Under the pieces are notes generated by a model. The model was not told where the DNA came from, searched no databases, and worked only from the letters and a program-made list of their open reading frames with translations. From Nannocystis bainbridge (lineage in GTDB: Bacteria; Myxococcota_A; Polyangia; Nannocystales; Nannocystaceae), in the NCBI RefSeq assembly GCF_028368995.1, contig NZ_JAQNDL010000002.1, positions 1,472,001-1,536,000 on the forward strand: a DNA stretch of 64,000 bases. The letters run 5' to 3'. The translations under genes and the position numbers were made by a program. Each line of letters starts with the position of its first letter. Position 1 is the stretch's first letter. This document shows positions 1-56,455 of the stretch, one piece after another.

Positions 1-60
1 CGCCCTCGCAGCCCGCGCCTGCCTCGCGTCCGCGAGGCGCCCGGGACGACGAGCGCGCTG

Positions 61-160
61 CATCGAGCATGTTCAATAGGACATGCTCTCATGAGCATGT
101 CCTTCGAGTCATGTCCCAAGGATAATGATCTTTCGAGCATGTTCGAGAGGACATGCCTGC
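61..160. repeat. 14-bp-phased CATG array (7 units)
   Basis: CATG at 68, 82, 96, 110, 138 and 152, with AATG at 124; exact 14-bp spacing and variable spacers. Confidence 0.9.
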
Positions 161-200: not shown

Positions 201-1817
201 TCAGCGATCGTGCAGGCGCGTGCCGAGCGGCCGCTTCGCCTCGTCGCGCAGGCCGACGAGCACGCTGTCGCCGGCCTCGGCCAGGGCCAGCTCGCCGTAG
301 CGGGCCGCCTCGAGCGTCGTGGCCTCGCCCTCGGGGAACAGGAACGTCTCCGCCCCGAGGCTCACTTCGTCGCCGCGCTTGTGGTAGCGCAGGCGCAGCT
401 CGCCGGGCCGCAGCGCGCGGCCGTCGTCGACGCGGACGAACTGGGCCACGTCGTCGGCGTCGCGGGTGACGACCAGCGCCCCGCGCGAGGCCATCGCCTG
501 CACGTCGTCCAGCTCGGACACCAGCGCGTAGCGCAGCTCCATGTAGTCGCCCTGCATCAGCGAGCGCGGATCGACCGGGGCAAGGCGCAGCAGCACTCGC
601 TCGCCCGCCGCCAGCACGCGCTCCTTCTCGAACACCACCCACCCGGGGATCGCCAGCCCGAGCGCCAGCGCCAGCGACAACCACCGCAGGTCGCCGCCCC
701 GCGTCGCCAGCCGGCCCGCCTCCGTCTCGCGCGGGCGCGCGGCCGTGCGCCGCAGCAAGCCGGCCAACAGCAGGAACATCAGGCCGTGGCTGACGGCCAC
801 GAGCGACTTGGCCAGCAGCGTCGTGCCGTGCTCGTAGTACCAGAAGCCGAGGAAGCCGCCGATCGCGCTCAGGCCGAGCAGGCGCAGGTTGAAGCTCGCG
901 CGCAGCTGCCCGAGGATCAGCAGCGTCAGCCCGGCGCTGAGGCCCGGGGTGTCGAGGCCGAGCAGGGCGGTCAGCCAGATCCCCACACACGCGGCCGCCT
1001 GGGCCCGCCCGCGCAGCTCCGGCCGCTCGCGCCCCGCCTGTACGATCAGCCAGGTCGACAGCGCCGCCCAGCCCGCCGACAGCGCCATCGCTTCGAGCGC
1101 CCACGCGTCGCCGAGGAACATCGGCAGCCCGTCGGTCGCCCCGTCGCCGGCCCCGACCGTGATCGGCCCCAACAGCGCGAGCGGGAGGGTATACGCCAGC
1201 GGCTGCCACAGCCGGCCCAGCCGCGGCAGCAGCTGCGCCTGCAGCACCCACAGTCCGCACAGACATGTCCCCATGAACAGGGCCAAAAGACCATGTCCGA
1301 AGGGACCTACGTCGAGCTCGGCGGCCAGCACCAGCAGCGCCCAGGCGCCGACCAGGACCGCGGCGCAGCCGATGCTGAGGTCGCGGATCAGCCCCAGCGT
1401 GATCGCTTGCAGGATCATCGTGGCGACGCACATGGCCTCGTCGTCGCCGATGACCTCGGCCAGGCTGACGAGCAGCAGGATCTGGCCGCCGATGGCGGCG
1501 ATCCACCGCAGCTGCAGCTCGAGCAGGGTGGTCGCGCCGCGCGCGAGCACGGCCGCCAGCCCGAGGCCCGCGGCGCCGAGCGTGAGGCCGAGCGGCGCCA
1601 CCTCGGTGACATCCATCTCCACCAGGAAGACCGCCAGCAGCAGCGCCCCGAGCCACACCGAGACCGAGGCGCCCGCCTGCTGCAGCCGCAAGCCCTCGCC
1701 GGTGAGCCCGGTCAAGGCGTCGCGGGTCCGCTGCCCGAGCGGCGTGTCGGCGTCGAGCGCCGCGGGGTCGACGTGGCCCTCGCGGGCCAGCTGCTCGAGC
1801 AGCGCCCGGGTGCTCAC
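201..1817 (-). CDS. Membrane protein, DUF4401-like region fused to a C-terminal GDYXXLXY domain
   Basis: Multiple TM helices, then LAPVDPRSLMQGDYMELRY; GTG start overlaps the upstream stop (GTGA at 1814-1817). Confidence 0.85.
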   Translation of the reverse strand: MSTRALLEQLAREGHVDPAALDADTPLGQRTRDALTGLTGEGLRLQQAGASVSVWLGALLLAVFLVEMDVTEVAPLGLTLGAAGLGLAAVLARGATTLLELQLRWIAAIGGQILLLVSLAEVIGDDEAMCVATMILQAITLGLIRDLSIGCAAVLVGAWALLVLAAELDVGPFGHGLLALFMGTCLCGLWVLQAQLLPRLGRLWQPLAYTLPLALLGPITVGAGDGATDGLPMFLGDAWALEAMALSAGWAALSTWLIVQAGRERPELRGRAQAAACVGIWLTALLGLDTPGLSAGLTLLILGQLRASFNLRLLGLSAIGGFLGFWYYEHGTTLLAKSLVAVSHGLMFLLLAGLLRRTAARPRETEAGRLATRGGDLRWLSLALALGLAIPGWVVFEKERVLAAGERVLLRLAPVDPRSLMQGDYMELRYALVSELDDVQAMASRGALVVTRDADDVAQFVRVDDGRALRPGELRLRYHKRGDEVSLGAETFLFPEGEATTLEAARYGELALAEAGDSVLVGLRDEAKRPLGTRLHDR

Positions 1818-4668: not shown

Positions 4669-4696
4669 GCGCGGCGGCCGGGCCGCCGCGCACCTC

Positions 4697-4760
4697 GGGA
4701 CATGTCCGTCAGCACATGTCCGTCAGAGCATGTCCCGCAGCACATGCCCTGCAGGCCAGC
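4697..4760. repeat. 14-bp-phased CATG array (4-5 units)
   Basis: CATG at 4701, 4715, 4729 and 4743, CAGC at 4757; lies between convergent genes. Confidence 0.85.
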
Positions 4761-5813: not shown

Positions 5814-6087
5814 GCCGGGACCCTAGCGACCGCGACCGCACAGGGCAAAATAACGGCCGGCCCGGCCGGGGGCAGAGGGCCGGCTCGCCGGTCGCGGCCG
5901 TCGCGGAGGCCAGCTCCGGCAGCGCGCCGGCGAACCCATCCTGGGGGCTGCGAGATCGCGAACGGCCCGTCACGCTCCGCGAAGCCGCGGTCGCGGGTCC
6001 GGATGTTTCACCGTTCGCTGCGAGGACGGACACATGAGGGGTTCCCCCTCGTGACAGGCGATCGTGGTATGGCAGGTCGAACGCGCC

Positions 6088-7392
6088 ATGCGCACCGTCC
6101 TGCTCCTCGCACTCCTGGCCGTGACTCCGCTCGCCTGCGGCGGTGAAGCTGGCGCGGGTGGTCCGGGCGGCCCCGGCGGTCCCGGAGGCAAGGGTCGCCG
6201 CGGCGGTGAGGCCGAGCCGCTGGCCGTCGCCGTCACCACCCTGACCCCGGCCACCATCGAGCGGCACTACCGCGGCGCCGGCACCCTGCGGGCCCTGCGA
6301 GCCGCCGACCTGGTCGCGCTGCAGCCCGGCGTCGTGCTCGATCTCAAGGCCGAAGAGGGCGACCTCGTGGCCGAGGGCCAGCTGCTGGCTCGCCTCGACG
6401 GCCGCGCGTATCAGCTGCAGGCCGCGCGCGACCGCCTCAGCGCCCAGAACGCGGCCAAGGAGCTCGGGCGGCTCGAGCAGTTGACCGGCGTGCTGTCGCG
6501 CGAAGAGCTCGACAAGCAGCGCTACGCCGCCGAATCGGCGCTGGCCAGCGCCCAGGTGTCGCGCCACCAGGCCTCGCAGACGACCGTCTCGGCCCCGTTC
6601 GCCGGCACCATCACCCGCCGCCACATCGACGTCGGCAACCTCGCCACCACCTCCAAGTCGCTCTTCACGATCGCCGACCTCAGCGCCCTCGACCTCGAGC
6701 TGCACGTGCCCGAGCGCGAGGCCAGCGCGGTCCAGGCCGGGGCGCCGGCCGTCGTCGAGCTGCAGGACGGCAGCACGTTCGAGGCCCGGGTCGAGCGCCG
6801 GGCGCCGGTCGTCGACCCGCTGACCGGGACCGTGAAGTTCGTGGTCCGGGCCCGCAGCTTCCCCGCGGGCGCGGTGCCCGGGGCGTTCGCGCGCGCGACC
6901 CTGCGCGTGGCAGTGCGCGAGGCGGCGCCGAGCGTGCCGCGCAGCGCGATCGTCGAGGTCGAGGGCAAGCCGCACGTGTACGTGGTCGAGGAGGGCCGGG
7001 CTCGCCGGCGTCCGGTCGAGCTCGGGCTGGTCGGCGAGGACCGGGCGGAGATCCGCGGCGGCGTGGCCGAGGGCGCCTCGATCGTGCTCGACGCCGGCAC
7101 CGGCATCGCCGAGGGCATGCCCGTGCGCGCGGTCGCCGAGGGCGAGGCCAAGGGAGCCACCAAGGCGACGGGCGAGGGCAAGGCCGACGCTGCCGCGGGC
7201 GGCGAGGGCAAGGCCGCGGCGGGCCAGGCAGGCGCCGCGGCTGCGGGCCTGTCCGCCGAGGCAGGTCCGAAGGGACAGGTCCCCGAGGCCAGGTCCGAAG
7301 GGGCAGGTCCCGAGGGCCAGGTTCCCGCGGCCAGGGCGCAAGAGACAGGTCCGAAGGGGCAGGCGGCCGCGGCGCCGCCAGGGGTCCGGTGA
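6088..7392 (+). CDS. RND efflux periplasmic adaptor (MFP) lipoprotein
   Basis: Lipobox LAC, EGDLVAEGQLLARLD, SAPFAG, VDPLTGT; directly upstream of the RND permeases. Confidence 0.92.
   Translation: MRTVLLLALLAVTPLACGGEAGAGGPGGPGGPGGKGRRGGEAEPLAVAVTTLTPATIERHYRGAGTLRALRAADLVALQPGVVLDLKAEEGDLVAEGQLLARLDGRAYQLQAARDRLSAQNAAKELGRLEQLTGVLSREELDKQRYAAESALASAQVSRHQASQTTVSAPFAGTITRRHIDVGNLATTSKSLFTIADLSALDLELHVPEREASAVQAGAPAVVELQDGSTFEARVERRAPVVDPLTGTVKFVVRARSFPAGAVPGAFARATLRVAVREAAPSVPRSAIVEVEGKPHVYVVEEGRARRRPVELGLVGEDRAEIRGGVAEGASIVLDAGTGIAEGMPVRAVAEGEAKGATKATGEGKADAAAGGEGKAAAGQAGAAAAGLSAEAGPKGQVPEARSEGAGPEGQVPAARAQETGPKGQAAAAPPGVR
7245..7365. repeat. 14-bp-phased CAGG/CCTG array inside the MFP 3' end (9 units)
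   Basis: CCTG at 7248; CAGG at 7262, 7276, 7290, 7304, 7318, 7332, 7346 and 7360. Confidence 0.9.
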
Positions 7393-10300
7393 CGGGCGAG
7401 GCGCGGCCGCGCGGCATGGTCGCGGGCGCGGTCGGGCGGCCGGTCACGACCACCATGGTGCTGGTCGCTCTGGTCGTGTTCGGGCTGGTCGCGCTGACGC
7501 GGCTGCCGCTGGCGCTGCTGCCCGACCTCAGCTACCCGAGCGTCACCGTCCGCACCGAGATGCCGGACGCGGCCCCGCAGGAGGTCGAGGAGCTGCTGAC
7601 GCGGCCGGTCGAGGAGCTGGTCAGCGCGGTCCCGGGGGTGGTGCAGGTCGAGTCGGTCTCGCGCGAGGGCATCAGCGAGGTCGTGCTCGATTTCGGCTGG
7701 GGCACCGACATGGACCGCGGGCTCGACGACGTGCGCGAGAAGCTCGACCGCGTGGCCCTGCCGACCGGCGTGCAGCGGCCGGTGGTGCTGCGCTACGACC
7801 CGTCGCAGGAGCCGATCCTGCGCCTGGCTCTGGTCTCGCGCGACAACATGCGCCCGGCCGAGCTGTGGGAGCTGGCCGATCGCCGGGTCAAGCGCGCGCT
7901 CGAGAAGATCCCCGGCGTCGCGGCGGTGCAGATCCACGGCGGCGACAAGGAGGAGGTCCGGGTCGAGCTCGACCCGCAGCGGCTGTCGGCCCTGCGCGTG
8001 ACCGCCGACGAGGTCGCCCAGGCGATCCGCCGCGACAACGTCAACCGCCCCGGCGGCGCGCTGTCGGAGCAGAAGAGCCGCTACCTGCTGCGCACCGTCC
8101 ACGAGGCGCGCGAGCCGGCCGAGCTGGCCGAGGTCGTGGTCCGCAGCCAGAGCGGCGCCGAGCTGCGCCTGCGCGACGTCGCCGTGGTCGCGCGGGTGCC
8201 GGTCGAGCGCGAGGAGCTGGCCCTGGTCGCCGGCCGCGAGGCGGTCGAGCTGGCGGTCTACCGCGAGGGCGACGCCAACACGGTGGCGGTGTCGCGGGCG
8301 GTCCAGACGGCGCTGCCCGAGCTGCCCCTCGGGACAGGTCAGAGCGTGGTCGTGCTCAGCGACCAGGCCGCCTTCATCGAGTCGGCGATCGCCGAGGTCC
8401 AGAGCAACACCCTGCTCGGCGGGGCGCTGGCGGTGCTGGTCCTGCTGTTCTTCCTCCGCGACCTGCGGGCCACCCTGGTCATCGCCGCGGCCATCCCGAT
8501 CTCGCTGCTGGTCACCTTCGTGCCGCTGCAGATGCTCGGCGTCAGCCTCAACCTCATGAGCCTCGGCGGCCTGGCGCTCGGCGTCGGCATGCTGGTCGAC
8601 AACAGCATCGTCGTGCTCGAGTCGATCGCCCGCGTGCGGGAGCGCGACCCGCACGGCGGCGCCGCGGCCACGGCGGTGCGCGGGGCCACCGAGGTCGCCG
8701 CGTCGGTCGTGGCGTCGACGCTGACCACGGTGGCGGTGTTCCTGCCGATGGCGTTCGTCGAGGGCGTGGCCGGGCGGCTGATCCGCGACCTCGCGTACAC
8801 GGTGTCGCTCAGCATCCTGTCGTCGATGTTCGTCAGCCTGACCCTGGTGCCGGTGCTGCAGAGCCTCGGCGGCGGGGCCGGCGAGGGCGAGGGCGAGCCG
8901 GCGCCGCGCTCGCTGATCGCCTGGCTGCTGGCCCCGCTCGCCCTGGCGTTTCGCGGCCTGCGCGTTGCGACATGGTCGATGGGGAAGGTGCTCCGCGTGC
9001 TCACGGCCCCGTTCACGGCCGCCTACGCCGCGGTCGAGGATGCCTATCCGCGGCTCCTGCGGGCCGCGCTGCGCTGGCGGTTCACGGTGGTGGCGCTGGC
9101 GGTGGCGCTGTGCGTGCTGGCGTTCCAGCAGCTGCAGGGCCTCGGCAGCACGCTGCTGCCGGAGATCCAGCAGGGCGAGTTCTTCGTCCAGATCTCGCTG
9201 CCGCAGGGCAGCTCGCTCGACCGCACGGCCCACGTCGCCCGCCGGGTCGCCGCCGCGGTCGAGCAGGACGAGGCGGTCGCCCAGGTGTTCGCGCGCGTCG
9301 GCAGCATGACCGCCGGCGACAGCGCCACCGGCACGGTCGCCGGCACCCACCTGGCCCAGGTCAACGTCCGCCTGCAGCCGGGCCTGCTGGCGCCGGAGGA
9401 GGCCGCGCTCGAGGAGGCGCTGATGCTGGCGATGGCCGGCGCGGCCGCCGATCCGGAGGCGACGCTGCGGCTCGGCCGACCGGCGCTGTTCTCGTTCGAC
9501 GCCCCGATCGAGGTCCGCATCTTCAGCGAGGAGCCCGAGCGCGCGATCGGCCACGCGCTGGCGCTGCTGCCCGACCTGCGCGCGATCGAGGGCCTCGCCG
9601 ACGTCGCCCCGGACGACCTCGCCGGCCGCCCCGAGGTCCGCGTCGACTTCGATCGCGAGCGCCTCAGCCGCCTCAACCTCGGCGTCGACGCGGCCGCGCT
9701 CGCGGTCCAGCGCGCGGTCCAGGGCGAAATCGCGACCAAGATGCACGCGGCCGACCGGCAGCTCGACGTCCGCGTTCAGCTGCCGCAGGTCGACCGCACC
9801 CGCGCGGCCGATGTCGGCAAGATCGCCGTGGCCGTGATCGGCGACATCCCGGTCACCGTGGCCGCCGTGGCCGACCTGGTCGAAGGGACAGGCCCCGCCG
9901 AGATCCGCCACCTCGACGGCCGCCGCGGCCTGCGGATCCGCGCCCGCCTCACCGGTGAGGACCTCGGCACCGTTGCAGCCCGCGTCGAGGACGTGCTCGC
10001 CGCCCACGACCCTGGCGACGGCCGCGTCCAGGCCGAGCTCGGCGGTCAGGCCGAGTCCCTCGGCGGGTCGATGAAAAGCATGATGTTCGCGGCACTTATC
10101 GCCGTGTTCCTCATCTACGTGGTGATGGCGTCGAGCTTCGAGAGCCTGCATCACCCGCTGCTGATCATGTTCACCGTCCCGCTGGCGGTGGTCGGGGTCG
10201 CGTGGGGCTGTGTGCTGACCGGCACCCCGATCTCGGCGATGGTCGGCATGGGGGCGATCATCCTCGGCGGCATCGTCGTGAACAACGCGATCGTGCTGGT

Positions 10301-10595
10301 CAACACCGTCAACTACCGTCGCGGCCAGGGCATGGCGGTCGGCCCGGCGCTGGTCGAGGCCGGCCGGTTGCGGCTGCGGCCGATCATCATGACCACGGCG
10401 ACGACCGTGCTCGGCCTGTTGCCGATGGCGTACGGGGTCGGCGACGGCGCGGCCCTGCGCCAGCCGCTCGCGGTCACCGTCATCGGCGGCCTGACCGCGG
10501 CGACCCTGCTGACCCTGGTCGTGATCCCGTGCCTCTACAGCCTGCTGCCCGGCAAGCGCCAGGACGCCTGGGCCGACATGGCGGGGGAGGACTGA
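7389..10595 (+). CDS. RND efflux permease (AcrB/AcrD/AcrF family)
   Basis: RPV N-terminus, GMLVDNSIVVLE, GIVVNNAIVLV, RLRPIIMTT. Confidence 0.95.
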   Translation: MTGEARPRGMVAGAVGRPVTTTMVLVALVVFGLVALTRLPLALLPDLSYPSVTVRTEMPDAAPQEVEELLTRPVEELVSAVPGVVQVESVSREGISEVVLDFGWGTDMDRGLDDVREKLDRVALPTGVQRPVVLRYDPSQEPILRLALVSRDNMRPAELWELADRRVKRALEKIPGVAAVQIHGGDKEEVRVELDPQRLSALRVTADEVAQAIRRDNVNRPGGALSEQKSRYLLRTVHEAREPAELAEVVVRSQSGAELRLRDVAVVARVPVEREELALVAGREAVELAVYREGDANTVAVSRAVQTALPELPLGTGQSVVVLSDQAAFIESAIAEVQSNTLLGGALAVLVLLFFLRDLRATLVIAAAIPISLLVTFVPLQMLGVSLNLMSLGGLALGVGMLVDNSIVVLESIARVRERDPHGGAAATAVRGATEVAASVVASTLTTVAVFLPMAFVEGVAGRLIRDLAYTVSLSILSSMFVSLTLVPVLQSLGGGAGEGEGEPAPRSLIAWLLAPLALAFRGLRVATWSMGKVLRVLTAPFTAAYAAVEDAYPRLLRAALRWRFTVVALAVALCVLAFQQLQGLGSTLLPEIQQGEFFVQISLPQGSSLDRTAHVARRVAAAVEQDEAVAQVFARVGSMTAGDSATGTVAGTHLAQVNVRLQPGLLAPEEAALEEALMLAMAGAAADPEATLRLGRPALFSFDAPIEVRIFSEEPERAIGHALALLPDLRAIEGLADVAPDDLAGRPEVRVDFDRERLSRLNLGVDAAALAVQRAVQGEIATKMHAADRQLDVRVQLPQVDRTRAADVGKIAVAVIGDIPVTVAAVADLVEGTGPAEIRHLDGRRGLRIRARLTGEDLGTVAARVEDVLAAHDPGDGRVQAELGGQAESLGGSMKSMMFAALIAVFLIYVVMASSFESLHHPLLIMFTVPLAVVGVAWGCVLTGTPISAMVGMGAIILGGIVVNNAIVLVNTVNYRRGQGMAVGPALVEAGRLRLRPIIMTTATTVLGLLPMAYGVGDGAALRQPLAVTVIGGLTAATLLTLVVIPCLYSLLPGKRQDAWADMAGED

Positions 10596-10596
10596 C

Positions 10597-13500
10597 GTGA
10601 GCGACCATCGACCTGGCGAAGGGGACATGTCCCCGAACGCAGGTCCGATCGGACCTGGCCCCGAGGACATGTCCTCGAAGGCAGGCCCGCAGGTCAGCGG
10701 TCGAGCCAGCCTCAGCGACCTCGCGCTCGACCGCCCGGTGATGATCGGGATGCTGCTGCTGGCGATCCTGGTCCTCGGCGCGATCGCCACCGCCCGCCTG
10801 CCGCTGGCGTTCCTGCCGGCCGGCGGGACCGCGCGCGTGTCGCTGCGCATCAACCTCCAGCGCACCAGCCCGGAGCTGGTCGAGCGCGAGATCATCCGCC
10901 CGGTCGAGGAGGCGATGGCCGGGCTGCGCGGGCTGCAGCGGATCCAGGTCGGCAGCGGCGGCTGGGGCGTGCGCGTCAACCTCGAGTTCGTCGCCGGCAC
11001 CGACATCGCGGCGCGCAAGGCCGAGATCCGCGAGCGCTTCGACCGCATCCGCGGGACCCTGCCGGACGCGATCACGCGGGTCACGCTCGACTCGTGGGGC
11101 CGCTCCGACGACGCGGTGGTCAAGCTGCGCCTCGCCAGCGACAGCGACCTGACGCGCTCGTACGACCTGATCGAGCGCTACGTGGTGCGGCCGATCGAGC
11201 GCATCCCGGGGGTCTCGCGGGTCGAGCTCGAGGGCGTCGAGCCGCGCGAGCTCGAGGTGGCGCTCGACCTCGAGGCCCTGCGCCGCGCCGGTGTGTCGGC
11301 CCAGGCCGTCAGCACCGCCGTGCGCGAGGCCAGGCAGGGCCGCAGCCTCGGCGTCCTGCGCGAGGACGCGACCCAGCCCGGCGTGCGCGCGCCGCCGATC
11401 GACGCCGACCCGCAAGCGTTCGCGGCCCTGCCGGTGGCCCGCAGCCGCGGGGCCGCGGCGTCGACGACCTCCGCGGCCACCACGGCGCCGCGCACGACCG
11501 CGACGCCTGCCTCTTCGGGCATGTCCTCGGGGACAGCTTCCGCCGGGACCACGCCAGCGGTCTCGGCCACCGCGCCCCTGACGGCCCAGGGCCCGCAAGG
11601 CGTCGGCGCGCGCAGCAACACCGCCAGCGTCGGCCCGGGCGTCTACACCAGCACGCCGATCGGGTCCGGGGTCGCGCCGGCCACGGCGGCGGCGGCCGGG
11701 CAGACCAGCGCGGCCGTGCCGGCGCGGGTCGGCGAGGTCGCGCGGGTCGAGGTCCACCCGCGAGAGAACCGCAACTTCCGCAGCCTCGACGGCCGCCTCG
11801 GCGTCGACCTCTCGGTCTACGCCGACGCCGGGGCCAGCCCGGTCGACGTCGCCCAAGCCGTCAACGGGGTGGTCGAGGAGCTGCAAGCCAGCCCGCGGCT
11901 CGGCGGCATCTCGGCGGTCGTCTACCACGACCAGGGCAAGATCATCCTCAAGACGCTGGCCGACCTGCGCGACACCGGCATCTACGGCGGCGTGCTCGGG
12001 GTGGCCATGCTGTGGCTGTTCCTGCGCCGCTGGGGCGTGACGATGGTGGCCGCGCTGTGCATCCCGCTGACGATCCTGGCGACCTGCGGGGTCCTGCTGA
12101 TCCGCGGCGAGGAGCTCAACTGCATCGTCCTGCTCGGCCTCGTGCTCGGCGTCGGCATGCTGGTCGACAACGCGGTCGTCATCACCGAGGCGATCGAGCT
12201 CCAGGCCCAGCGCGGGCTGCCGGCGCGCCTGGCGGTGCGGGCCGGCGGGCGCGAGGTCGGCCTGGCGACCGTGGCGTCGACGCTGTCGAGCGTGATCGTG
12301 TTCCTGCCGCTGGTGTTCGGCGACCCGGCCAACCCGATGAGCGCGCTGCTGGCCCCGCTCGGCCTGACCTTCGCCACGGTCCTTTTGTGCAGCCTGTTCG
12401 TCAGCCAGACGCTGGTGCCGCTGATCATGCCGACGGTGCTGCGGCGCGGCGGGGTGGCCGAAGGGACAGGTCGCGGCGGACGCCTGCTCGGCCCGCTGAT
12501 CGCCGGCTACGGGCGCCTGATCGCGTTCACGCTGCGGTTCCGCCGGACCGCGCTGGTGCTCGGCCTCGGCCTCGCGGCCAGCGCCGTCATCCCGGTCCGG
12601 CTGCTGGGCTACAACCTCACCGACATCGACCCGAAGCCCGACTGGGTCGAGGTCAGCATGCAGTTCGTCGGCAGCCCCGGCTACAAGGAGATCGGCGAGC
12701 GCGTGCGCGTGGTCGAGGAGGCGATCCTGGCCAAGAAGGACGCGCTCCAGGTCACCCACGTGTCGTGCGCCTACTCCGACTTCTGGGGCCGCTGCGACGT
12801 CCACCCGATCGCCCGCGCCGCCTCCGAGGCCGACGTCGAGGCGTTCACCACCACCGTCAAGCAGGCGCTGCCCGAGCAGCCGGGCGTGCGCTACCTGGTC
12901 GGCGAGAACAACCGCGGGCACATGCGCGGCAACTCCGATCGCCACGAGGTCGAGCTGGCGATCAAGGGCGAGGACATGGGCGTGCTCATGGACCTGTCCG
13001 AAAGGGCAGCTTCGCACCTGCGCGCGACGCTGCCGCGCGGCAGCGCCGACAACCCCGAGTCGGGCGGCGTCGACACCGTGATCGGCCCCTACGACGAGGG
13101 CTCGCGCGAGCTCCACGTCCGCCTCGACGGCGCCCTGCTGCGCCGCTACGGCCTGCGCGCCGACGACGTCGCGCGCCTGATCCAGACCGCGTTCCAGGGC
13201 ACGCCGCTCGGCCAGGTGCGCAGCCCCGAGGGGCAGATCGAGCTGCGCCTGTCGGCCGGCAACGCCAGCGGCAGGGCAGGGGACGGGCCGACGCTCGAGC
13301 AGCTGCGCGACCTGCCGATCCCGCTGGCCGACGGCGGCGAGGTCACCGTCGGCAGCATCGCCTCGCTCGAGCCGACGCGCAGCCCGTTCTACATCCAGCG
13401 GCTCGACCGCGAGACCCAGGTCAAGGTCAAGGCCCGCTTCTTCACCCCCGACCCGGAGAAGAACCGCGCCGCCGTCAACAAGGCGATGGAGAGCTTCGTG

Positions 13501-14088
13501 TTCCCGACCGGCTACAGCAGCGGCGAGTGGTCGCGCTGGGGCCGGACGCAGCGGTCGAGCATGGAGGTCCTGATCGACCTCGGCCTGTGCCTGCTGCTCG
13601 TCTACGCGGTGATGGCCTCGCTGTTCGAGAGCTTCCTGCAGCCGTTCGCCATCCTCGCGACGTGCCTGCTCGGCTGCGTCGGCGCCCCGTGGCTGATGTG
13701 GTGGACCGGCACCACCGTCGACACCACGGCGATGATCGGCCTCTTTATCCTCATCGGCATCGCCGTCAACAACGGCATCATGCTGATCGACCGCGCCATC
13801 CAGCTGCGCGCCGTCGGCATGACCCGCGACCAGGCGCTCGCGGCCGCCGGCTCCGACCGCCTGCGCCCGATCTTGATGACCGCGGGTACGACGGTGCTCG
13901 GCCTGGTGCCGATGCTGATCCACCACCCCACACTCGCAGGCGTCTACTACCACGCCATCGCGCTGATCCTCGTCGGCGGACTGGCGTCGAGTACGGTCAT
14001 GACGCTGGTCTTCCTGCCGGCCACGTACAGCTTGCTCGACGACCTGGCCCGCTCGGCCCGCTCGGTGTGGCGGCGCGTGGCCAGATGA
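10597..14088 (+). CDS. Second RND efflux permease with low-complexity insertion
   Basis: GMLVDNAVVITE, GIAVNNGIMLID, RLRPILMT; A/T/S-rich insert at ~11440-11720. Confidence 0.93.
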   Translation: MSDHRPGEGDMSPNAGPIGPGPEDMSSKAGPQVSGRASLSDLALDRPVMIGMLLLAILVLGAIATARLPLAFLPAGGTARVSLRINLQRTSPELVEREIIRPVEEAMAGLRGLQRIQVGSGGWGVRVNLEFVAGTDIAARKAEIRERFDRIRGTLPDAITRVTLDSWGRSDDAVVKLRLASDSDLTRSYDLIERYVVRPIERIPGVSRVELEGVEPRELEVALDLEALRRAGVSAQAVSTAVREARQGRSLGVLREDATQPGVRAPPIDADPQAFAALPVARSRGAAASTTSAATTAPRTTATPASSGMSSGTASAGTTPAVSATAPLTAQGPQGVGARSNTASVGPGVYTSTPIGSGVAPATAAAAGQTSAAVPARVGEVARVEVHPRENRNFRSLDGRLGVDLSVYADAGASPVDVAQAVNGVVEELQASPRLGGISAVVYHDQGKIILKTLADLRDTGIYGGVLGVAMLWLFLRRWGVTMVAALCIPLTILATCGVLLIRGEELNCIVLLGLVLGVGMLVDNAVVITEAIELQAQRGLPARLAVRAGGREVGLATVASTLSSVIVFLPLVFGDPANPMSALLAPLGLTFATVLLCSLFVSQTLVPLIMPTVLRRGGVAEGTGRGGRLLGPLIAGYGRLIAFTLRFRRTALVLGLGLAASAVIPVRLLGYNLTDIDPKPDWVEVSMQFVGSPGYKEIGERVRVVEEAILAKKDALQVTHVSCAYSDFWGRCDVHPIARAASEADVEAFTTTVKQALPEQPGVRYLVGENNRGHMRGNSDRHEVELAIKGEDMGVLMDLSERAASHLRATLPRGSADNPESGGVDTVIGPYDEGSRELHVRLDGALLRRYGLRADDVARLIQTAFQGTPLGQVRSPEGQIELRLSAGNASGRAGDGPTLEQLRDLPIPLADGGEVTVGSIASLEPTRSPFYIQRLDRETQVKVKARFFTPDPEKNRAAVNKAMESFVFPTGYSSGEWSRWGRTQRSSMEVLIDLGLCLLLVYAVMASLFESFLQPFAILATCLLGCVGAPWLMWWTGTTVDTTAMIGLFILIGIAVNNGIMLIDRAIQLRAVGMTRDQALAAAGSDRLRPILMTAGTTVLGLVPMLIHHPTLAGVYYHAIALILVGGLASSTVMTLVFLPATYSLLDDLARSARSVWRRVAR
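10608..10690. repeat. 14-bp-phased array inside the N-terminal extension of the second permease (6 units)
   Basis: CCTG 10612, CATG 10626, CAGG 10640, CCTG 10654, CATG 10668, CAGG 10682. Confidence 0.85.
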
Positions 14089-15038: not shown

Positions 15039-15043
15039 CGACG

Positions 15044-15210
15044 ATGGCATGTCCCGAAGGCCATGCTCTTCGGGACATGTACTGCAGGACATGAGCATTG
15101 CGCCATGCCCTGAAGCACATGCGTTCGAGGCCATGCTCCCGAGAACATGTGCATCGAGACATGTCCATGAGGACATGGCCTGATGGCCATGCCCTGAGGG
15201 ACATGCCACG
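15044..15210. repeat. 14-bp-phased CATG array (12 perfect-core units)
   Basis: CATG at 15048, 15062, 15076, 15090, 15104, 15118, 15132, 15146, 15160, 15174, 15188 and 15202; between convergent genes. Confidence 0.95.
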
Positions 15211-15214
15211 CACC

Positions 15215-17125
15215 TCAGTCGCGCGCGCGCGAGCGGGTGAACAGCCCGCCGAGGCCGAGCAGCAGCGACAGCCCGCCCACCGCCAGACCTGTCCCATAGG
15301 CCAGGCGCGAGCGGAGCTCGGCCGCGGCCGTCTCCGGGCGCTCGACGCTGGCGGTCAGGCGCGCCTGCAGCTGCGGGTCTTCGGGCGCCAGCTCGGCCGC
15401 GGTCGCCAGCAGCATGCGCCGGCCGTCCTCGGTGGCGGCCAGGTCGGCCTCGGCCAGCAGCGCCTGGACCCGCAGCGCGTCGGCGCGGCCCGGATCGGCC
15501 TCGTCGAGCAGCGCCGCGCTCTTGCGCCACAGGCGAGCGCCCTGCGCCAGATCGCCGGCGGCGGCGGCCTCGCTGGCGGCCTGCTCGTAGGTCGGCACCA
15601 GCTCGGCGCGGGCGCTGAGCTGCGGATCGTCGGCGAGCAGGCGATCGAGGATCGCGATCGCGGCCGCGCGATCGGGCTCGCCGAGCGCCGCCGCGATCTC
15701 GGCCCGCTCGCGCTCGCGGCGGCCGTCGTCGAGCCGCTCGAAATACGCCCGCGCCAGCCGCTCCGGCTGGGCCTCGCACACCCCGGCGAACACGCTGTCC
15801 TTCGGCGCCGAGCGGCAGTCGGGTTCGGCCAGCTCGGGCTGATGGCTGGCGATCCGACTCATGATCGCGATCCGGGCCAGGTCGCGGTACGTCAGCTGCG
15901 CCGCCGACTCGCCGGTGCCGCCGCCGACGAAGCGCAGCAGCTTGCGCTCGGCCCGCGGCGCCGGCCCGGTCACGAACGCCAGGAACGCCTCGCGCGCGGC
16001 CTCACGCACCCGCGGGATCGCGGCGTCGACGAAATCGAGCAGCGGCCCGGCCGCGTCGCCCGGGCGGACCACGGCGTAGGCCGCGATCAGATCGGCGAGC
16101 CGCGCCGGATCGTCGCCGACCGCCTGCAGCGCCTTGCGCGGGTGGGCCCGGTCCATGCGGTCGACCTGGTAGCCGGCGTACTCCGCCGTGCGATAGGCGA
16201 CCGAGTCCTTCACCACCTGCGCCTCGCCCTCGTCGGCGGGCAGGGGCGGGCGGACCGAGCGCCGCAGCAGCCCGGGCAGCGCCGGATCGCCGAGGCGGCG
16301 GATCGCTCGCCCGACCTCGTCGCGGAACGTGCTCTCGTGCAGGTACGCGGCCGCCAGCAGCGCCTCGACGACCTCGTCGGTGTGCGCCGGCACGGCCCCG
16401 ATCGAGGCCGCCGCGCGCAGCAGCGCCGCCTGGATCACGCAGTCGCGGTAGATCGGCCGCAGCACCTTCGACACCTGGCGCGACGGCAGGGCCAGCAGGT
16501 CGGTGAACCAGTCCTCCGACAGCTTGATCCCTTGGTGGCCGTGGGCCTTCTTCCACGCCAGCTCGAAGTGCCCGTAGCGGTTCGGCACGTCGCCGCCGAT
16601 CACAGCCAGCAGCGCTTTGTAGTCGGCCTTGCGGGCGCTGCGCGGCGCCAGCAGCTCGGCCCGGACCGCCGGCCACAGCTCCGGGGGCGCCGCCGCCAGC
16701 GCTCGCGCCAGCGGCCCGAGGTCGCGGTGCGGCCCGTCGCGCATCGCCGCGATCAGCCCCGCGAGCTCGTCCGCGGCCGTCGGCGGCGCGACCGGCTGGC
16801 CTTCGATACCTGGCGCATCGACCCTGTCGGAAGGTTCCTGTTCTTCGGGACCTGTCCCTTCGGACTCGCGCGGCGGCCCGGTCTTGGCCTTGGCCTTGCG
16901 CTTCGCCGGGCGGGCGGGCTCGGCGTCGTCGGCGGGCAGCTCCGCGACCGCGGCGTCGAGCTCGCGGTCGCCCAGGGCCGCGGCCTGGGCGAACCAGAGC
17001 TCGTAGCGGTCGGCCCAGGCCTGGGCCTGCAGCGTGTCGGCCGACGAGCGGGTCAGGACCACGACCTGCGGCTCACCGGCGCAGGCGGCGACCAGGGTCG
17101 AAAGGAGCAGGGCGCGCCGTGGCAT
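15215..17125 (-). CDS. Hypothetical lipoprotein, HEAT/TPR-like helical, with C-terminal TM helix
   Basis: Lipobox VAAC, Ala-rich helical repeats, C-terminal hydrophobic segment. Confidence 0.75.
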   Translation of the reverse strand: MPRRALLLSTLVAACAGEPQVVVLTRSSADTLQAQAWADRYELWFAQAAALGDRELDAAVAELPADDAEPARPAKRKAKAKTGPPRESEGTGPEEQEPSDRVDAPGIEGQPVAPPTAADELAGLIAAMRDGPHRDLGPLARALAAAPPELWPAVRAELLAPRSARKADYKALLAVIGGDVPNRYGHFELAWKKAHGHQGIKLSEDWFTDLLALPSRQVSKVLRPIYRDCVIQAALLRAAASIGAVPAHTDEVVEALLAAAYLHESTFRDEVGRAIRRLGDPALPGLLRRSVRPPLPADEGEAQVVKDSVAYRTAEYAGYQVDRMDRAHPRKALQAVGDDPARLADLIAAYAVVRPGDAAGPLLDFVDAAIPRVREAAREAFLAFVTGPAPRAERKLLRFVGGGTGESAAQLTYRDLARIAIMSRIASHQPELAEPDCRSAPKDSVFAGVCEAQPERLARAYFERLDDGRRERERAEIAAALGEPDRAAAIAILDRLLADDPQLSARAELVPTYEQAASEAAAAGDLAQGARLWRKSAALLDEADPGRADALRVQALLAEADLAATEDGRRMLLATAAELAPEDPQLQARLTASVERPETAAAELRSRLAYGTGLAVGGLSLLLGLGGLFTRSRARD

Positions 17126-27610: not shown

Positions 27611-27800
27611 GCCGCGGCGCGGAGCCGTCCCGAAGCCCTCGGCCGCAGCGCGACGCGTCGACCTCTTGCCGCGGCGCGGAGCCGCCATTACGGACCTCGA
27701 GGTCCTCGGCCGCCAGCGCGACGCGTCGACCCGACCTCATGCCACGGCGCGGAGCCGCCACTACGGACCTCGAGGTCCTCGGCCGACAGCGCGACGCTCG
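27611..27800. repeat. Degenerate GC-rich tandem repeat, 3 units of ~57-73 bp with internal palindromes
   Basis: GCC(G/A)CGGCGCGGAGCCG at 27611, 27668 and 27741; GGACCTCGAGGTCC palindrome in two units. Confidence 0.8.
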
Positions 27801-27803
27801 GCC

Positions 27804-28202
27804 TCAATGACGCAGCGCGGCGGCGTCGAGCAGCGACCCGCAGCGGCGGGCCGCGTCGTCGAGCGTGAACAGGCCGACGAGGTGACCGCGGTCGCTGATG
27901 ACCACGGCCTCGGAGCGGTGCGTCAGCATCAATCGCAGCACCGCGTCGACGCTGCGCCACGGGGGTGCGACGGTGGGGTCGCCGCACATCACGTCGCGCA
28001 CGAGCCGACGCGCGAGCAGGTCGCCGCGGAGCCTGGCGAGGTCGCGCTCGTACACGAGGCCGAGCAGCTCGCCGTAGTCGAGCACGGGCAGCAGCGCGAC
28101 GCCCTCGTCGCGCATGCGCTGGAGCGCCGAAGCGGCCACCTCGTCGGGCAGGACCGAAGAGGGCAGGGCGCGCATGAGCTCGCAGACCGGGCGAGAAGCC
28201 AT
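27804..28202 (-). CDS. CBS domain pair protein
   Basis: VCELM...LPVLD.GELLGLV.ERDL; VRDVM...GHLVGLFTLDD. Confidence 0.85.
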   Translation of the reverse strand: MASRPVCELMRALPSSVLPDEVAASALQRMRDEGVALLPVLDYGELLGLVYERDLARLRGDLLARRLVRDVMCGDPTVAPPWRSVDAVLRLMLTHRSEAVVISDRGHLVGLFTLDDAARRCGSLLDAAALRH

Positions 28203-29544: not shown

Positions 29545-29885
29545 TCTGCATGTACTCCTGAACATGCCTCGCGGGACATGCTCATACAGACATAAACAAA
29601 TCGTCATGTCCAAAGGGCCATGACCAGATGTACATGGCCGATCGATCAGATACATATGTCTGATACAACATGCCCGATAGACCATGCCCAAAGGGACATG
29701 TCCTCTAAAACATCATCGCATGCCCTATGCGACATGCCCGATCGAACATGGCTATATGGACATGTCCTCTAGAACATCCTCGCATGTCCGATGCGACATG
29801 CCCGATCGACCATGCTCACATGGACATGTCCTATGGAACATTCTCGCATGTCCGATGCGACATGCCCGATCGACCATGTCCTCTC
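29545..29885. repeat. Large 14-bp-phased CATG array with a 64-bp higher-order repeat
   Basis: Cores every 14 bp from 29549 to 29875, with 8-bp steps before 29655, 29719, 29783 and 29847, giving 64-bp units. Confidence 0.95.
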
Positions 29886-44690: not shown

Positions 44691-45407
44691 TCACGTTCGC
44701 GGATGGGCTCGGTAGTACTCGGCCGCGAGCCAGCCAAGGTCGAGCTTCGTGTAGCGCTGCGTGCTGCTCAGGCTTGCGTGGCCCAGCATCTCCTGGATGC
44801 TTCGCAGGTCGCAGCCCCGCAGCAACAGGTGCGTGGCGAAGCTGTGGCGGATCCCATGAGGCCCCACGCGGACCTTGGCCTCGACCGCCTTGCAGCGGCG
44901 ATACACCAGCTCTCGAACAGTGCGGTCGCTGAGGCGGGTGCCGTTCCTGCCGAGGAAGAGGGACGGGGCGGGGGCGATGAGCAACTGGTGACGCACCTCG
45001 AGGTACCGCTGCACCGCTGCCGCGCCGAGGGTTCCAATGGGAACAATGCGGTCCTTGTCCCCCTTGCCGCGCACCACCCGGATCGTTAGCTCGTCGCAAT
45101 CCCAACGAAGATCATCAACATCGAGCGCAACGCACTCGGTGACGCGTAGACCGGCCCCGTAGAGCACCTCGAGGACCGCGCGGTCACGGAGGCCGCGAGC
45201 GCCCTGCGCATGGCCTGGCCCTTCAATCATGTTCTCAAGGTCGCTGAGCGCGGCGGGCCGGCCGTGTCGGCGCTCAACTCCGTTCGCAAACCCGTGGAGG
45301 TCGCCTGAGTAGGCGCGGGCGGTGTGCGGCGAGAGCCGCCGCACGCACGTGATGAACCGAGGAAGCGCTTTATAGCGTTGCGCAGCACACGCTCGATCTA
45401 CCGCCAC
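44691..45407 (-). pseudogene. xerC: XerC-like tyrosine recombinase with in-frame deletion in the core-binding domain
   Basis: LSPHTARAYSGDL, RDRAVLEVLYGAGLRVTE, GKGDKDRIVP, HGIRHSFATHLL, QEMLGHASLSSTQRYT, AHPR; ~238 aa versus ~300 typical; start uncertain. Confidence 0.8.
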
Positions 45408-56322: not shown

Positions 56323-56455
56323 CCTCGCGCGCGCCCGAGAGTTTTTTTGGGCGCGCCCCGAAGGTCAGCTCGAGCGACGCGGCCCGGAGATCCTCGCGAG
56401 CGCCCGAGAGTTTTTGGGGCGCGCCCCGGAGGTCAGCTCGAACGACGCGGCCCGG
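56323..56455. repeat. Tandem duplication, 2 x ~65 bp (69-bp period)
   Basis: CCTCGCG.GCGCCCGAGAG-polyT-GGGCGCGCCCCG.AGGTCAGCTCGA.CGACGCGGCCCGG at 56323 and 56392. Confidence 0.85.

Follow-up and report, generated by a model that had tools for sequence, protein, structure and literature searches.

How can a gene that has to spell a protein also carry a row of four-base words spaced exactly 14 bp apart, a distance that is not a multiple of three? The gene in question encodes a HlyD-family membrane fusion protein (MFP; PF16576, E 3e-19) of Nannocystis bainbridge and occupies positions 6088-7392 on the + strand of the 64,000-nucleotide stretch of DNA that we analysed, hereafter the window (G000:C3:1472001-1536000, from a genome, G000, of 11.05 Mb and 71.5% GC). 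We are confident that the tail of this gene is dual-coded, being under constraint at the DNA level and, at the protein level, under avoidance of cysteine. As for the cause, the explanation that we find best overall, and favour with some reserve, is that a putative DNA-binding protein reads the row and that protein-level selection removes the cysteine which the row would otherwise create.

The array in the MFP tail

Nine four-base words stand at exact 14-bp spacing in the 3' end of the gene (7248..7363): CCTG at 7248, and CAGG at 7262, 7276, 7290, 7304, 7318, 7332, 7346 and 7360. None of the nine is CATG, so that the phased cores of the original prediction are there as described. If spelled CATG, the words at 7248, 7290 and 7332 would be read as xxC ATG (Met frame), those at 7262, 7304 and 7346 as xCA TGx (Cys frame), and those at 7276, 7318 and 7360 as CAT Gxx (His frame). 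Between them lie eight 14-bp units of the form (T/G)GTCC-N4-GGRCA (7250 to 7361); the core-blind array model introduced below reports eight units (7243-7354), the ninth having a degenerate right flank. The encoded residues, AGPKGQVPEARSEG/AGPEGQVPAARAQE/TGPKGQ, form a low-complexity C-terminal tail in an open reading frame (6064/6088-7392) that has its earliest start at 6064, its coding-model start at 6088 and a lipobox-like N-terminus. A single-sequence AlphaFold model of the protein (mean predicted local distance difference test score 48.8) is uninformative on the tail, and a comparison of the tail with phage sequences gave no match.

Such a tail might be an ordinary peptide repeat, a 42-bp (14-residue) duplication selected as a Gly/Pro/Ala linker or grown by slippage, in which the 14-bp phase is incidental. 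Tandem Repeats Finder reports periods of 14, 28 and 42, the last with 78% matches; some other coding arrays are plain 42-bp duplications, and adjacent spacers are identical more often than random ones (4.2% vs 1.2%). However, with the peptide fixed and the codon usage of the genome, the chance of obtaining all nine cores is 2.5e-10, because they require the rare codons GCA/ACA and AGG. Nor are the units near-identical, as those of a slippage minisatellite would be: adjacent intergenic units share 8.1 of 14 bases, random pairs 7.8. Runs of at least seven phased CATG, CAGG or CCTG cores number 100 genome-wide at period 14, seven at period 13 and none at periods 11, 12, 15, 16 and 17. Considering in addition the orthologues and silent sites described below, which already refute it, we find a mere peptide repeat hardly credible.

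A spaced dyad that abuts its neighbours

The repeating unit is the dyad TGTCC-N4-GGACA, present in 1,987 perfect copies (156-fold over expectation) vs 16 with a three-base and five with a five-base spacer; 1,601 of the perfect copies stand outside arrays of three or more. The spacing noted in the original prediction is real, but the four-base word that it took for the motif core is not the centre of a unit: CATG is the junction of two abutting dyads, and CAGG or CCTG results when the outermost base of one unit is changed. Array ends fade out after a GGACA half. An array model that ignores the two central bases, trained on the units in the middle of CATG triplets and applied at a score of at least 8, gave 1,394 arrays at period 14 vs 0-44 at periods 11, 13, 15, 16 and 17; after removal of overlaps 1,393 arrays with 6,247 units remained. 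Some reach 20 units, in which the register is exact and the spacers are unrelated. The flank logos contain C(A/C)..(T/G)G and nothing else. The extended single site reads C(A/C)TGTCY-N4-RGACA(T/G)G, and adjacent sites therefore overlap in the junction. Among single-mismatch variants at the outermost base, T>G is the commonest (299 vs 76 and 57).

Junction spelling depends on the reading frame

The altered core had been regarded as a coding form that spares the protein Met, His, Cys and stop codons. Internal coding arrays do use CATG less, in 408 of 856 junctions vs 2724 of 3473 (78%) between genes, and CAGG plus CCTG make up 310 of the former and 323 of the latter. Arrays of at least five units lack CATG altogether in 8 of 33 coding and 5 of 361 intergenic cases, and in arrays that cross a stop codon CATG accounts for 53 of 113 junctions in the coding part and 794 of 1034 outside it. 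Nonetheless, CAGG and CCTG are a natural variant and no coding-only invention, as the intergenic units already indicate: the 18-mer flanked by CC..GG is commoner than that flanked by CA..TG in several relatives, four genomes of the genus among them (G002, 56 vs 23; G006, 74 vs 27; G008, 98 vs 40; G009, 127 vs 63; G013, 12 vs 9), and CC is the main intergenic flank in G009 (19 of 32 vs 4). The CA..TG flank dominates in G000 (615 vs 124), in five close relatives and in genus g2.

What distinguishes coding arrays is a rule of frame. We took the 164 of 280 coding arrays that have strongly coding flanks on both sides (strict internal). Their 188 Cys-frame units are spelled CAGG 104 times, CATG 46, CCGG 10, CATT 5, CACG 4, AAGG 4, CCTG 3 and CAAG 0, whereas CATG keeps a share of 57-58% in the Met frame (227 units: CATG 132, CCTG 28, CAGG 25) and the His frame (211 units: CATG 121, CCTG 35, CAGG 31). 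One vote per array in the Cys frame gives 107 vs 4, with 73 ties (184 arrays). Read on the other strand CAGG becomes CCTG, so that the two words denote one site, and intergenic arrays use them in balanced numbers (141 vs 182; for sense-oriented units in tandem gaps, 80 vs 87). The 104 vs 3 must therefore stem from translation: a Cys-frame CAGG replaces TGx by a Gly codon, whereas CCTG leaves TGx in place. Other changes that would remove the cysteine are scarce (Arg CGT 6, Ser AGT/AGC 0 of 188), which points to the DNA site as what chooses G. Where CATG survives in the Cys frame, TGx is TGG in 19 of 49 cases vs 297 of 5448 for intergenic units so read; these 5448 readings give Cys 5005 times and TGA 146 times. 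Cysteine is the main residue avoided, stops are a minor matter and Met and His are only mildly reduced. The stretches compared in three relatives behave alike, with Cys-frame CAGG:CATG:CCTG counts of 15:2:0, 10:3:0 and 5:1:0.

Protein-level selection would thus purge the cysteine codon that arises where a CA|TG junction falls in the Cys frame. TGY can be removed by three base changes; T>G (Gly) appears to be the only one used, and it is the change that the motif tolerates best in non-coding arrays; the altered CAGG site is therefore probably still read. At the MFP locus CAGG stands in the Met and His frames too, and codons alone are no explanation of this. Here it was probably inherited from a duplicated GGTCC-type unit: variants within one array mostly share their orientation (49 vs 15 pairs in coding arrays, 167 vs 54 outside genes), which suggests a duplication history. 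Weaker folding of the mRNA just upstream of the coupled start of the next gene, a resistance-nodulation-division (RND) transporter, may be a further help toward CAGG.

Orthologues and silent sites

We examined 22 MFP orthologue loci and excluded that of G007, where the extension ran into another frame. The same array is present in the orthologues of G010, G005 and G001. Across the four genomes the junction columns C, A, G and G are invariant in 8 of 8 units while 11 of 32 spacer columns vary, and the codons GCA/ACA, AGG and nearly all GGT are kept. In G003 a different peptide, GMPEGAGAKEQAAKDMPEAAGAKGQAARDMP, stands on the same DNA phase in the same place, and the phase therefore outlives the peptide; its three Met-frame units all have CATG junctions, its four other units all CAGG. 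The tails of G002, G008, G009 and 13 genomes of other genera are unrelated and array-free (scores <5), and no such peptide occurs in these 16 orthologues. The tail is lineage-specific, as had been predicted.

Two observations on these tails stand apart. Those of G002, G009 and G008 (L007, L008, L009) contain one to several CTGTCC-N4-GGACAG-like sites, ~21-27 bp apart in two of them (peptides EAVPKTS / AVPRDSK), and no 14-bp array; judged by their sequence they appear to be the same site in the same tail in another arrangement. In the excluded orthologue (L005, G007 C2:2728358-2729611) the frame continues for 805 residues past the expected stop, which suggests either an assembly error or a frameshift within the tail or close to it.

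Constraint at the DNA level, as originally proposed, was borne out at silent sites. The comparison covers 159 orthologue pairs of G010 (254 kb), 217 of G001 (400 kb) and 92 of G003 (145 kb), in counts that share G000 sites across up to three relatives and are hence non-independent. Fourfold-site A/T bases that match the motif are conserved in 96 of 112 cases in arrays, 36 of 40 in perfect single sites and 74 of 82 in single sites with one mismatch, vs a background of 1260 of 3783 and 5 of 13 for motif-mismatching A/T bases in arrays. The comparison codon by codon agrees, with conservation inside vs outside the motif of 35/44 vs 292/831 for GGT, 17/18 vs 51/96 for AGG, 28/32 vs 92/274 for CCT, 21/21 vs 98/291 for GCA and 78/86 vs 55/102 for ACA; because GGT and AGG codons arise in CAGG units, these units are themselves constrained. 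Amino acids in arrays, in turn, are conserved less than the background (323/442 vs 74646/83340, vs G001). In 98 of 101 comparisons the orthologous position holds an array (score of at least 6), often with a different sequence; some few of the entries are duplicated or neighbouring arrays, and the count has no formal null.

Arrays also change in length. Six units in the region of G000 C3:1296494 correspond, in the comparison with L060/L047, to 23 in G001, as exact 42-bp repeats, and to 11 in G010; arrays can expand via 42-bp duplication. Growth by template switching was considered and set aside as weak, spacers that are reverse complements of their neighbours amounting to 2.2% vs 4.2% for identical ones and 1.2% at random.

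Distribution in the genome and beyond

Sites with at most one mismatch number ~6,200, of which 2,594 are coding and spread along gene length. Their density is 4.84/kb in convergent gaps, 1.69 in tandem gaps, 0.57 in divergent gaps and 0.28 in coding sequence. Arrays, too, are mostly placed in convergent gaps (238/520 and 204/394 vs 1/339 and 7/472 for divergent ones), and in tandem gaps they begin a median of 22 bp past the stop. Site density climbs with GC (rho 0.53), sites being sparse in low-GC stretches, and the gaps between arrays are over-dispersed (coefficient of variation (CV) 1.63). The distance to intergenic arrays is greater for coding arrays (median 3.6 kb) than for random positions nearby (2.6-2.9 kb). 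Perfect sites are distributed over the reading frames as 448/282/63, and motif-encoded tripeptides are enriched (DMS 1.9x, TCP 1.4x).

Counts of perfect dyads per genome range from 114 to 2,090 within the genus (11 genomes) and from 87 to 169 in genera g2 and g4 (five genomes); the remaining 45 genomes have 0-20. Across all GTDB species the double-unit pattern was found in 79 stretches, 73 of them in Nannocystis or Nannocystaceae and six as single matches elsewhere. Only one viral contig carries it (L314, IMG/VR, 14.7 kb), which may be a Nannocystis prophage or a host fragment. No alternative spaced dyad emerged when 400 kb of G019 and 200 kb of G041 were scanned. Literature searches, whose coverage included few subscription journals and no supplements, turned up no paper on this motif.

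Abundance of this kind could also come about by molecular drive, which has been suggested for DNA uptake sequences (DUS) and for HIP1 of cyanobacteria; uptake, repair or conversion would rewrite near-matches to the consensus, the sites would have no function in place, and the protein would filter out Cys and stops. According to the accessible parts of PMC2397512 and PMC2817400, DUS show a similar distribution, with placement in permissive protein regions, high conservation and scarcity in acquired DNA. The climb of density with GC and the enriched tripeptides fit this mechanism, and the genome holds a ComEC-type gene and N6/N4 methyltransferases (12 PF01555 matches); ComEC, however, is near-universal (10 of 14 control genomes). 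What uptake or methylation would yield is dispersed single copies, whereas the arrays hold as many as 20 units in register, and the contrast between convergent and divergent gaps is not expected. A drive that respected the register would still require a cooperative reader. On balance we regard drive as rather unlikely, even if it deserves to be kept in mind.

Hairpin or protein-binding site

Alternatively, the dyads could work as RNA in the manner of repetitive extragenic palindromes (REPs), forming mRNA hairpins behind genes that serve stability or termination, with coding CAGG weakening the fold for ribosomes and for the coupled RND start. The preference for convergent gaps and for positions just past stops is that of REPs, as far as the accessible text of PMC3733652 goes. 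Coding arrays also fold more weakly (60 arrays each, median z -2.7 vs -4.5 for intergenic ones), the MFP array having a z of -1.97 and an intergenic array of the window (15043-15190) -5.1/-6.2. A mild sense-strand excess is seen near stops, with UUCG-type loops at 50 vs 31 and TCCG at 22 vs 5. Against a hairpin, array units show almost no pairing covariation (observed/expected 0.87/0.86, 0.93/0.93, 0.48/0.45, 0.58/0.57 and 0.59/0.57), and the non-pairing variants TGGCC (786) and TGACC (408) are among the commonest. Moreover, a hairpin requires neither an exact four-base loop nor an exact 14-bp register, one wobble variant has, close to stops, a bias opposite to that of a hairpin (47 vs 70), and the imbalance of CAGG and CCTG in one frame only would be left unexplained. 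Positions 1-36000 of the window have no Rfam match, and the REP-associated tyrosine (Y1/RAYT) transposase has no match in the genome (PF01797: 0 in G000, 90% complete; control found in 6 of 14 genomes). We consider an RNA element of this type unlikely, but some sites may double as hairpins.

The exact spacing, the near-absent covariation and the non-pairing variants would instead fit a dimeric protein on double-stranded DNA, arranged head to tail. Such a dimer likely binds the dyads of the MFP tail and of the other arrays and would pack cooperatively at 14-bp pitch, and its job may lie at the level of the chromosome, loading protein behind genes and away from promoters. The existence of a protein reader seems to us fairly probable, and the site would be kept for this putative protein; that it is a winged-helix dimer is a guess by analogy.

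Several points weigh against a protein reader with cysteine purged from the coding arrays. Some signals are hairpin-like: symmetric double mismatches are in surplus among intergenic sites (357 vs 219 expected of 1598, 1.6-fold), flank complementarity is 0.56 vs 0.45, and another wobble (U.G-compatible) variant is in excess on the sense strand of convergent gaps (188 vs 94). Silent-site conservation is likewise expected under molecular drive, and its counts are non-independent as noted above. Gene calls come from a self-trained gene caller (8,120 genes), which is a weakness. Secreted proteins do not avoid Cys significantly more than others do (CATG:CAGG 15:53 vs 55:109, p 0.09). Finally, no reader was found among the families that we searched (LexA, PadR, RTP, Y1 transposase). 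The single LexA has a different box and no dyad in its own promoter. PadR has no match in G000, occurs in 4 of 10 other genomes of the genus and is found in motif-poor genera as well, and RTP (PF02334) has no match in G000. We also came upon a family of winged-helix proteins, with ~11 loci in G000, but it occurs throughout the bacterial family (35 of 36 other genomes, motif-poor genera included) and does not track the motif.

The box in the lexA promoter matches the Myxococcus-type LexA box. The dyad is missing from one recA, uvrA, recN, ssb and dnaE-type gene; the second recA and one ruvA candidate are preceded by a loose match to TGNC-N6-GNCA. Among 28 MerR_1/HTH_17 loci checked for nearby sites there was no pattern.

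The winged-helix family merits description in its own right. In its members a Lys/Ala/Pro-rich linker joins an N-terminal helical domain to a C-terminal winged helix, a layout that we take to be H-NS/Rok-like; one member has the N-terminal part only and another has two winged helices. In G000 they are encoded at C3:1107326-1107877, C2:1707006-1707593, C1:775470-776261, C2:1545743-1546555, C2:586509-587093, C2:2529716-2530519, C1:4246066-4246596, C1:218146-218619 and C1:1768099-1768311 (L218-L226), and one of 11 loci has an upstream site vs a background of 18-32%. A second member is present in 21 of 24 genomes. No Pfam family clearly fits, the family model has no match in the PDB at E<=0.001, and a search of 24 genomes outside the family gave one weak match; G013 has 17 matches. 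We regard these proteins as a candidate undescribed nucleoid protein family. Separately, a 65-residue protein (G000 C1:1377114-1377311, L233) with a weak histone-fold match below the cut-off (PF00808, E 0.004) is a possible bacterial histone.

An operator-like state in a sister genus

We fetched 40 sites of genus g2 (20 of 21 in G011; 20 of 39 in G052, picked with a lean to AT-rich spacers). Here the perfect 18-mer is isolated and flanked by AT, an operator-like 18-22-mer. Two of the 40 are coding, and the 27 intergenic ones that we classed by eye from BLAST-identified neighbours lie in tandem (17), divergent (8) and convergent (2) gaps, compared with 218, 46 and 273 sites in G000. This suggests an ordinary operator that may have expanded genome-wide and shifted behind genes. 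A bolder version, which we put forward only tentatively, has the operator co-opted in Nannocystis into a lattice whose reader polymerises at 14-bp pitch and which writes new protein tails and linkers in a frame-dependent, Cys-free spelling; three units (42 bp) would then span about four helical turns.

An operator could also act locally. In the MFP operon, two AcrB-family genes lie downstream of the HlyD-family adaptor. Each of the two gene junctions has its array (7248-7363 and 10607-10690), kept in relatives; these arrays could tune the MFP:RND stoichiometry by stalling RNA polymerase, and the tandem or divergent placement of 25 of the 27 classed g2 sites is what a regulator of this kind would show. 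The number of sites in G000, coding ones included, goes far beyond a regulon, however, and promoters are avoided there, which makes an operon-specific roadblock very improbable.

Many of the g2 sites (L178-L217, G011 and G052) lie upstream of secreted-looking, Cys-rich proteins with CGDG repeats. Genes with an upstream site in the divergent gaps of G000 show no enrichment of CGDG proteins and a modest one of lipoproteins (59/296 vs 344/2550, p 0.004).

Other features of the window

The MFP stop codon TGA overlaps the GTG start of the first AcrB-family RND transporter (7389..10595, +; PF00873, E 3e-230), which contains two single dyad sites (8323 and 9877). A six-unit array with mixed CCTG/CATG/CAGG junctions (10607..10690) marks the boundary with the second (10597..14088, +; PF00873, E 6e-143; single sites at 11522, 12455 and 12995) and is found in the same place in three relatives; it is coding if that gene starts at GTG 10597, whereas a start at ATG 10669 would leave most of it untranslated. 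A twelve-unit, all-CATG array between convergent genes (15043..15210) illustrates, by comparison, the intergenic form. Further intergenic arrays have eight units with mostly CATG junctions (49..160) and four CATG units between convergent genes (4696..4751). Two arrays lie in minus-strand genes: a three-unit one (1259..1300, gene 201-1817), which shows no length change in three relatives, and one at 16818..16873 (gene 15215-17125), where CCTG on the + strand is CAGG on the coding strand.

At 29558-29883 five short arrays adjoin, with the register shifted between them, in a 64-bp higher-order repeat of 3.5 copies (Tandem Repeats Finder score 320). Tandem repeats unrelated to the dyad are found at 27637-27820 (73 bp, 2.6 copies) and 56323-56455 (68 bp, 1.9 copies). 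From 40001 to 64000 the dyad is nearly gone (one loose match in 24 kb vs 2-12 per 8 kb earlier) and GC is down to 67-71%; an integrase-like fragment lies at 44691-45014 and a methyltransferase-like gene just past the window end. This part is possibly recently acquired DNA. Elsewhere in the genome, two contig ends (C1:4518321-4536243 and C2:3022944-3033464) carry identical genes, one of them in three copies, which suggests duplicated contig ends or a terminal repeat.

Comparison with known systems

The motif shares features with several classes of abundant bacterial sequences. Like DUS of Neisseria and the uptake signal sequences (USS) of Pasteurellaceae, it has thousands of copies, many of them coding, is biased in frame, sits in permissive regions and is scarce in acquired DNA; the accessible parts of PMC2817400 and PMC2397512 describe frame bias, enrichment of motif-encoded tripeptides and permissive-region placement for the uptake sequences. 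However, DUS is an asymmetric 10-12-mer, while the Nannocystis motif, a dyad with a spacer, repeats end to end at exactly 14 bp; one array therefore occupies all three frames and its spelling must change by frame. Membership of the DUS class would further imply sequence-biased DNA uptake in a competent organism. The highly iterated palindrome HIP1 of cyanobacteria (GCGATCGC) is likewise a lineage-restricted, hyper-abundant palindrome with codon-independent conservation in genes: from what is accessible of these papers, codons are more conserved inside than outside it (PMC5861425), and it is tied to methyltransferases (PMC4390886). HIP1, though, is an unspaced octamer, quasi-periodic over the chromosome, whereas the Nannocystis motif is spaced, forms abutting arrays concentrated behind genes and has over-dispersed gaps between arrays (CV 1.6), even if its coding arrays keep a distance from intergenic ones.

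Placement recalls REPs and bacterial interspersed mosaic elements (BIMEs), which lie downstream of genes, mostly in convergent and tandem gaps, clustered and occasionally intragenic; the accessible text of PMC3733652 describes their 3' placement and occasional intragenic copies at protein termini, and makes no mention of Nannocystis, Plesiocystis, Sorangium or Myxococcus. Unlike those elements, the motif has no GTAG/CGTC tag, no Y1 (RAYT) transposase match in the genome, a unit of 14 bp rather than 20-40 bp, almost no covariation in array units, and units that are barely more alike than random. Its geometry, (A/C)TGT-N8-ACA(T/G), is identical to that of operators of winged-helix dimers, such as the PadR motif ATGT-N8-ACAT in the accessible part of PMC3506622. 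Such operators, however, are promoter sites with tens of copies, and the Nannocystis motif has thousands behind genes. Operators of the same kind and geometry are the LexA boxes of E. coli (CTGT-N8-ACAG) and Verrucomicrobia (TGTTC-N4-GAACA) and the ram site of RacA (TGNC-N6-GNCA).

New here are the frame rule, the natural experiment in G003 and the operator-like state in a sister genus. Since 14 is not a multiple of three, every array samples all three frames, and these overlapping codes make an unusually clean natural experiment: the 104:3 ratio of CAGG to CCTG in one frame isolates protein-level selection, and the missing Arg and Ser alternatives isolate selection at the DNA level. The spelling also predicts the tolerance of the reader, which should accept T>G at the outer base and neither T>C nor T>A. 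Moreover, here is a DNA motif that creates lineage-specific protein tails, and its arrays offer a more tractable test of whether selection or drive accounts for abundant bacterial motifs, HIP1 and DUS among them. In the accessible texts on DUS, HIP1 and REPs, abutting phased arrays with frame-dependent spelling are described for none. The Nannocystis dyad works within genes like DUS and HIP1, is placed like REPs, and is probably a member of none of these classes.

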